Positions 27,787-29,329 of a stretch of 64,000 nucleotides of DNA are shown one piece after another (positions within the stretch are counted from its first letter, which is position 1; each line of letters opens with the position of its first letter). The notes beneath the pieces were generated by a model. It did no database searches, had not been told where the DNA came from, and worked only from the letters and a program-made list of their open reading frames with translations. A program made the translations under genes and the position numbers. The stretch lies in sequence record PQ666539, one strand, 5' to 3'. Source of the stretch: Shigella phage sb1.

Positions 27787-29329
27787 GTAACAATACATAT
27801 CAGCACGTATCAAATGAATCAAAGTATGTTAAATTCGATCCTACTGGATCGAATTTTCCTGGCACTGTTACGACAGTACAGTCTGCATTATCAAAAATAA
27901 GTAATATTGGCGTAAATGGTATTCCTGATGCAACTATGGAAGTTAAAGGAATAGCAATGATTGCGTCAGAACAAGAGGTTTTAGATGGAACTAATAACTC
28001 TAAAATCGTTACACCTGCTACATTAGCAACAAGATTATTGTATCCAAATGCTACTGAAACTAAATACGGTTTAACGCGTTATTCAACAAATGAAGAAACT
28101 TTAAAAGGCTCAGATAATAATTCGTCGATAACTCCACAAAAATTGAAATACCACACTGACGATGTATTCAAAAACAGGTATTCATCTGAATCATCAAACG
28201 GGGTTATTAAAATATCATCTACACCTGCGGCTTTGGCTGGTGTAGATGATACTACTGCGATGACTCCGCTAAAAACCAAAAACTTGCAATAAAATTAATT
28301 TCGCAAATAGCTCCTTCAGAAGACACAGCATCAGAATCGGTGAGAGGAGTAGTTCAATTATCTACTGTTGCACAAATTCGTCAAGGAACTCTCCGCGAAG
28401 GATATGCAATTTCTCCGTATACCTTTATGAATTCTGTTGCAACACATGAATATAGGGGTGTTATACGTCTAGGAACACAAACTGAAATTAATAATAATTT
28501 AGGCGGTGTTGCAGTAACAGGTGAAACACTAAATGGTCGAGGAGCTACCGGTTCTATGCGTGGAGTAGTTAAATTAACGACGCAAGCCGGTATTGCCCCT
28601 GAAGGTGATAGCTCTGGAGCATTAGCATGGAACGCAGATGTAATTAATACACGCGGTGGACAAACTATTAATGGTTCTTTAAATTTAGACCATCTTACAG
28701 CAAATGGAATTTGGTCACGCGGTGGAATGTGGAAAAATGGCGATCAACCTGTTGCCACTGAAAGATATGCGTCCGAAAGGGTTCCAGTTGGAACTATTAT
28801 GATGTTTGCGGGTGATTCAGCACCTACAGGTTGGATTATGTGTCATGGTGGAACCGTGTCAGGTGACCAATTTCCTGATTATAGAAACGTAGTTGGATCG
28901 AGATTTGGTGGTGATTGGAATAATCATGGTATTCCTGATATGCGAGGTCTTTTCGTCAGAGGAGCCGGTACTTGCGGTCATATTTTAAATCAACGAGGAC
29001 AAGATGGTTATGGAAAGGATAGACTTGGTGTAGGATGTGACGGAATGCATGTTGTTGGTGTCCAGGCACAACAAATGTCATACCATAAACACGCCGGTGG
29101 TTGGGGAGAATATAACAGAAGTGAAGGCCCATTTGGCGCGTCAGTTTATCAAGGATATCTTGGAACTAGAAAATATTCCGACTGGGATAATGCTTCATAC
29201 TTCACTAATGATGGATTTGAATTAGGTGTACCGAGAGATGCTCATGGTACACTTAATCGTGAAGGATTAATTGGTTATGAAACTAGACCATGGAATATAT
29301 CATTAAACTATATTATTAAAATTCATTAA
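27783..29329 (+). CDS. 12: gp12 short tail fibre, frameshifted near 28271-28290
   Basis: N-part frame 0 ends 28292, C-part frame 2 (track 28340..29329); both match T4 gp12. Confidence 0.85.

Follow-up and report, generated by a model that had tools for sequence, protein, structure and literature searches.

The frameshift that interrupts gene 12 (short tail fibre) in the sequence record of Shigella phage sb1 (PQ666539) is very probably a defect of that record and not a feature of a functioning phage. The window, that is, the whole stretch of 64,000 nucleotides that was analysed, covers the half of a T4-like phage genome (Tequatrovirus) in which the structural genes lie; at a nucleotide identity of ~96-97%, it aligns colinearly with Killian, PBM-1, ZCEC15 and Ec_YwIITB1 (YwIITB1 below), all Escherichia phages, and with the Shigella phages SsoM_113 and pSs-1. 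Two observations carry this conclusion: the gene 12 deletion was private to the record and missing from close relatives, and the same record held other lesions that were unselected and incompatible with viability, whereas the control genomes were clean.

The gene 12 break and its protein product

Gene 12 starts at 27783 on the plus strand, and in the list of open reading frames its frame 0 ended at a premature TAA (28290-28292), as a sequence-only reading of the window had described; the -1 frame was open from 28250 and ran on to 29329, again in agreement with that reading. The parts of the broken gene were located as follows:

27783..28292, plus strand: 5' fragment of gene 12 (short tail fibre), a frame-0 ORF of 169 codons (169 aa) followed by TAA
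28250..29329, plus strand: 3' part of gene 12 in the -1 frame, open from 28250, with gp12 homology resuming at 28271
28276..28277, plus strand: lesion site, CC for CCC (one C lost), private in the alignments with respect to all four reference genomes

At the break, the window has AAAAACCAAAAAC and the relatives have AAAAACCCAAAAAC (alignment with five relatives). CCC was present in 5/5 of the aligned phages (Killian, SsoM_113, ZCEC15, YwIITB1 and pSs-1), which bears out the earlier claim that one base is missing, and both A5 runs flanking the deleted C were intact. The frame is broken after codon 165, and the uninterrupted frame of about 516-527 codons expected of a T4-type gp12 was not found; gene 12 as recorded is a pseudogene. 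Reference phages sharing the arrangement, which would count against a missing base, were looked for with the 81-nt stretch centred on the break: none of the 608 matching phage records reached 99% identity, and the full-length matches among those listed spanned 82 nt each, that is, one extra base. The short allele was likewise absent from viral_contigs, genome_contigs and metagenome_contigs by exact-pattern scan, the negative in viral_contigs being of little weight because the intact CCC pattern was also missing there. Exact-protein look-ups with the truncated gp12, gp7 and gp13 were negative, as was megablast against E. coli genomes and plasmids.

Both pieces matched T4 gp12, as had been claimed. 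The first fragment corresponded to positions 1-165 and the second to positions 162-492 of the PHROG 910 profile (tail collar fibre protein); the 5' fragment was 98.2% identical in amino acids to residues 1-168 of Killian gp12, and the second fragment contained the Pfam domains gp12-short_mid, Collar and S_tail_recep_bd, with PF09089, PF07484 and PF14928 all above the cut-offs. When the C was restored, residues 1-514 of the protein aligned end to end with residues 1-525 of T4 gp12 (PDB 5iv5_O; E = 3e-201), with TPLKTQKLAIKL opposite T4 TPLKTQQLAIKL. The two pieces thus adjoin each other within a single protein. Once the C was put back and six G:C>T:A changes were reverted, the result was a gp12 that was 99.6% identical to that of PBM-1, SsoM_113 and Killian, in each of which gene 12 is annotated as a single intact CDS, and 41 records were at least 99% identical to the restored, reverted product.

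The gene order gp9-gp10-gp11-gp12-wac-gp13 was recovered by tblastn with the Killian proteins and from the annotation of the relatives, gene 12 being flanked by gene 11 and wac within the block of baseplate genes, as at the T4-type gp12 locus. Save for its broken frame, gene 12 has nothing that sets it apart from the T4 gp12 short-tail-fibre family. The neighbouring wac gene (fibritin; 29342-30799, plus strand) showed 81% protein identity to its Killian counterpart, compared with 97-99% for the flanking genes, a divergence that is ordinary mosaicism of T-even fibre genes.

A substitution was scored as private when four relatives (Killian, ZCEC15, YwIITB1 and pSs-1) agreed and the window differed. 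Six private G:C>T:A changes were detected in gene 12, all of them non-synonymous (6/6), together with eight private transitions, all of them synonymous (8/8). Five of the G:C>T:A changes were missense, located between 28826 and 29229:

28826, plus strand: P349T, private G:C>T:A in gene 12
28926, plus strand: P382H, private G:C>T:A in gene 12
28973, plus strand: G398C, private G:C>T:A in gene 12
29055, plus strand: G425V, private G:C>T:A in gene 12
29229, plus strand: G483V, private G:C>T:A in gene 12

The sixth was a nonsense change. The TAA at 29327-29329, which closes the -1 frame, is itself a private C>A (TAC>TAA, Y516*) placed one codon ahead of the natural stop; the end at 29329 had been read correctly, and the correction concerns what that stop is.

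The break had also been ascribed to a sequencing indel on the grounds of its homopolymer context, and the two parts of that claim fared differently. Only three private 1-nt indels were found in the 64 kb with respect to the four reference genomes, and among them the gene 12 break was the only window-private indel within a coding region. The window contains 383 homopolymer runs of at least 5 nt (70 of at least 6 nt), none of which had a window-private change in length, and the gene 12 deletion sits in a C3 run only. Homopolymer error of the 454, Ion Torrent or nanopore type was rejected on these counts (0 private length changes in 383 runs). An error in the record remains the most likely cause; this conclusion stands because the consensus is unreliable overall, not because of the homopolymer context.

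The other two private 1-nt indels were an inserted C at 2389, upstream of the ORF 1799..2386, and a deleted A at 9502, beside the tRNA cluster; both are non-coding, break no recognised gene and may represent natural variation. A 12-nt in-frame deletion at 12861 (minus strand), in gene 1 (dNMP kinase), was also private with respect to the four references; it removes four residues in the ..DEGK.. region and is probably natural variation. The tRNA cluster comprises 10 tRNAs at 9561-10388 on the minus strand. Three Killian genes of the homing-endonuclease type were missing from the window: two of them (a nuclease gene and an HNH gene) belong to the tRNA region, at about 8600-10500, and the third to the interval between the uvsW segments, at about 51016-51045.

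Private substitutions and premature stops across the window

Private substitutions were surveyed along the whole window, and each of the four relatives was processed identically to serve as a control. The counts were as follows (genome; private substitutions; G>T plus C>A; share of the private substitutions):

Window; 684; 231 (118 G>T, 113 C>A); 34%
Killian; 232; 16; 7%
ZCEC15; 324; 34; 10%
YwIITB1; 475; 30; 6%
pSs-1; 851; 34; 4%

The 231 private G>T and C>A events of the window affect about 1.15% of its G:C sites, and the excess over the controls amounts to about 200 events, or ~1% of all G:C pairs. This gives one further feature, drawn from the private-substitution comparison:

1..64000, not assigned to a strand: field of G>T and C>A changes, ~200 in excess

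These changes were evenly spaced along the 64 kb and occurred at ~1% in each of the 16 trinucleotide contexts, and no over-dispersion was detected among 5-mer or 7-mer contexts (permutation p = 0.30 and 0.84, respectively). G>T and C>A were randomly interleaved (runs test p = 0.26) and strand-symmetric. Their coding effect (80.3% missense, 11.8% nonsense and 7.9% synonymous) was close to that expected of random G:C>T:A changes in the same genes (79.2% missense, 12.1% nonsense and 8.7% synonymous). The private transitions of the window were 80% synonymous and resembled those of the controls, and the control genomes contained 0-2 nonsense changes.

The record is that of a normally evolved phage genome plus one substitution class that was never exposed to selection. 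Since only the G:C>T:A changes are unselected, natural AT-biased divergence and pseudogene decay were rejected. A naturally decaying pseudogene or a defective prophage remnant was rejected on the same evidence, the private transitions having stayed synonymous in the proportion given above, and the prophage-remnant reading has also against it that the window consists of colinear phage DNA from end to end.

When the window was scanned with the full set of Killian proteins, 26 premature stops were found in 23 genes, from 3072 to 61451, distributed as follows:

One premature stop each: denV, 57A and genes 3, 5, 6, 9, 10, 16 and 18
One premature stop each: 23, uvsW.1, uvsY, 51, 29, 48 and alt
Two premature stops each: genes 17, 22 and 27
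Premature stops in four hypothetical genes

All but one of these stops (25/26) were due to G>T or C>A, the stop-creating changes being GAA>TAA, GGA>TGA, TCA>TAA, TAC>TAA, TGC>TGA, TCG>TAG and GAG>TAG. The Y516* of gene 12 is a further case beside the 26, and a TAA at 2485-2487 was dropped from the count, being a natural gene end common to YwIITB1 and pSs-1. One of the stops lies two genes upstream of gene 12, in gene 10 (baseplate wedge/tail pin), where it was detected in the ORF list and by alignment:

26189..26191, plus strand: premature TAA in gene 10 (TCA>TAA, S290*)

This stop splits gp10 into ORFs of 289 and 272 aa. The sole stop that did not arise from G:C>T:A was found in gene 23 (major capsid), at 43617-43619 on the plus strand (TTA>TAA, L274*), so that not every lethal lesion belongs to the dominant error class. 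Towards the end of the window, two tandem paralogues of an Alt-like ADP-ribosyltransferase were observed (59928-64000, minus strand); the first has a premature TAG (E178*), and the second is ~70% identical to the Killian copy, with several small indels.

The premature stops fall in capsid, sheath, terminase, scaffold and baseplate genes, and TAA, TGA and TAG were all present in frame, at E, G, S, Y, C and L positions. A suppressor anticodon was found in none (0/10) of the window's tRNAs. Reassignment or suppression of stop codons was ruled out, given that all three stops occur at many residues and that no suppressor tRNA is present. With capsid, scaffold, sheath, terminase and baseplate genes interrupted by stop codons of every type, and no suppressor tRNA, the phage as recorded could not replicate; the recorded genome cannot be that of a viable phage.

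Origin of the lesions

The lesions are private, random in position, context and strand, blind to codon position and jointly incompatible with viability. The explanation that we favour is that the underlying genome would be an ordinary Tequatrovirus with a normal gene 12 of 516 codons, over which the record would carry an overlay of ~200 random G:C>T:A changes, one T>A nonsense change (gene 23) and one C lost from CCC (gene 12), these lesions being presumably non-biological, or at least never selected. We infer a technical source that turned G into T at the consensus level. A candidate is oxidative damage of the template, of the 8-oxoG type, combined with very few templates or a very low read depth; a comparable fault of base calling or of consensus building could have acted instead. 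The single-C deletion would then have entered the consensus under the same poor conditions. It is tied to the substitution process by parsimony, which is not proof, the deletion being an indel and the dominant lesion class a substitution.

In published work (Costello et al. 2013, PMC3616734), C>A/G>T is documented as an artefact of 8-oxoG that forms while DNA is sheared, and it is present at low allelic fraction. The changes in the window are of the same class and non-biological in the same sense, being unselected and strand-symmetric and occurring from one end of the sequence to the other. In contrast to that artefact of individual reads, they stand in the consensus, at ~1% of G:C sites and free of context. 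For changes to reach the consensus, either the depth or the number of templates must have been very low, as we assumed for the oxidation artefact, or the source must be another one. A total lack of context preference is unusual for chemical damage, and would also fit corruption of the sequence after base calling.

Two other technical sources were considered. Base-calling error specific to certain k-mers, as might be caused by the modified cytosine of T-even DNA, was unsupported, no enrichment being present at the level of 3-, 5- or 7-mers, and a literature search for an effect of modified cytosine on base calling in T4 returned nothing specific. An origin in a single strand or a single read was rejected, as G>T and C>A form no runs and indels are too rare for a raw long read.

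An unlikely alternative, although the strongest of those considered, is that the lesions were real in one DNA molecule, which had suffered guanine-directed damage or mutagenesis and was sequenced from one or few molecules. The routes would include oxidation, depurination followed by A-rule bypass, or a mutY/mutM-type background, and the sampling would be that of single-particle or single-cell amplification or of a metagenomic genome of low abundance; the loss of the C would then be a genuine but non-functional mutation on a dead molecule. A spectrum restricted to G:C>T:A, strand-symmetric and unselected is what would be expected from damaged guanines fixed from one template, and the very low indel rate suggests that base calling was generally good, but the changes showed no context dependence. 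A related reading, in which a T-even phage genome underwent guanine-directed hypermutation in vivo (through a host defence that oxidises or depurinates DNA, for example, or through a reactive-oxygen burst in an abortive infection) and was caught from one or few templates, is very unlikely. Given the 26 stops, no replicating phage results whether the lesions arose in the record or in a single molecule, and the practical conclusion for gene 12 is therefore the same.

Explanations that would leave gene 12 functional fared far worse. It is extremely improbable that the A/C-rich stretch directs a programmed -1 ribosomal frameshift or causes transcriptional slippage and that full-length gp12 is thereby restored. 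The frame would be regained by slipping back one base at any point of 28250-28289, for example by P-site slippage on A_AAA at 28271-28274 to give ...LKNQKLAIK..., and the stretch holds two A5 runs; A5, however, is short for transcriptional slippage. The relatives compared all had CCC and an uninterrupted gene, in line with the empty search of the 608 matching records at 99% identity. The candidates C_AAA_AAC and A_AAA_ACC do not make a canonical in-frame X_XXY_YYZ heptamer. A segment of 105 nt that takes in the site and the sequence downstream of it had a minimum free energy of -10.5 kcal/mol, compared with a shuffle mean of -13.7 kcal/mol (z = +1.2), and 177 of 200 shuffles folded at least as well. 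Moreover, the 26 other gene-killing lesions are beyond rescue by frameshifting. The earlier judgement that a programmed shift is unlikely thus agrees with the lack of a canonical heptamer, of structure and of conservation.

Equally improbable is a natural split of gene 12, in which the 169-aa N-terminal piece and a C-terminal piece restarted at GTG 28340 would assemble into a fibre: a GTG-initiated ORF of 329 aa (28340..29329) is present, but no relative has a split gene 12, about 16 residues of the conserved shaft would be lost, and conserved glycines and prolines of the downstream part are hit by five random non-synonymous G:C>T:A changes, so that this part is not under selection here.

If the record is defective, as we consider very probable, the value of the finding lies mainly in quality control. 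Annotators working from this record would list gene 12, gene 10 and ~22 other genes as pseudogenes, and may be tempted to propose programmed frameshifting, stop-codon recoding or a defective phage. The proteins of the record contain ~1 false missense change per 300 bp and should be kept out of comparative and structural studies; the record itself needs a flag or a new round of sequencing. A damaged record can be recognised by sorting private substitutions by class and comparing the coding effect of each class with its random expectation.

Comparison with known systems

Programmed -1 frameshifts are known from the tail assembly chaperone G/GT of lambda-like phages and from dnaX, and to our knowledge both frames of such cases are conserved in all relatives. 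The window resembles them in having two overlapping frames, in a tail-related gene and with an A-rich junction. In contrast to G/GT and dnaX, it has neither a conserved slippery heptamer nor a stimulatory structure nor a conserved two-frame layout, and the gene 12 break is outside every class of programmed recoding.

Laboratory T4 mutants with nonsense mutations in gene 12 (12am) produce non-infectious particles and grow on suppressor hosts; they carry one or few defined amber codons. As in those mutants, gp12 is truncated in an otherwise T4-like genome, whereas the window combines a frameshift with 26 stops of three kinds and lacks a suppressor tRNA.

The closest likeness is to T4 gp12 itself (PDB 5iv5, 1ocy, 1pdi and 5lye), with which the window shares the same Pfam domains and the 9-10-11-12-wac-13 gene order, and the SYHKHAGG motif of T4 gp12 is kept in the alignment of the repaired product. 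Unlike in T4, the frame in the window record is broken, other residues stand at five conserved Gly/Pro positions, and the final codon reads as a stop.
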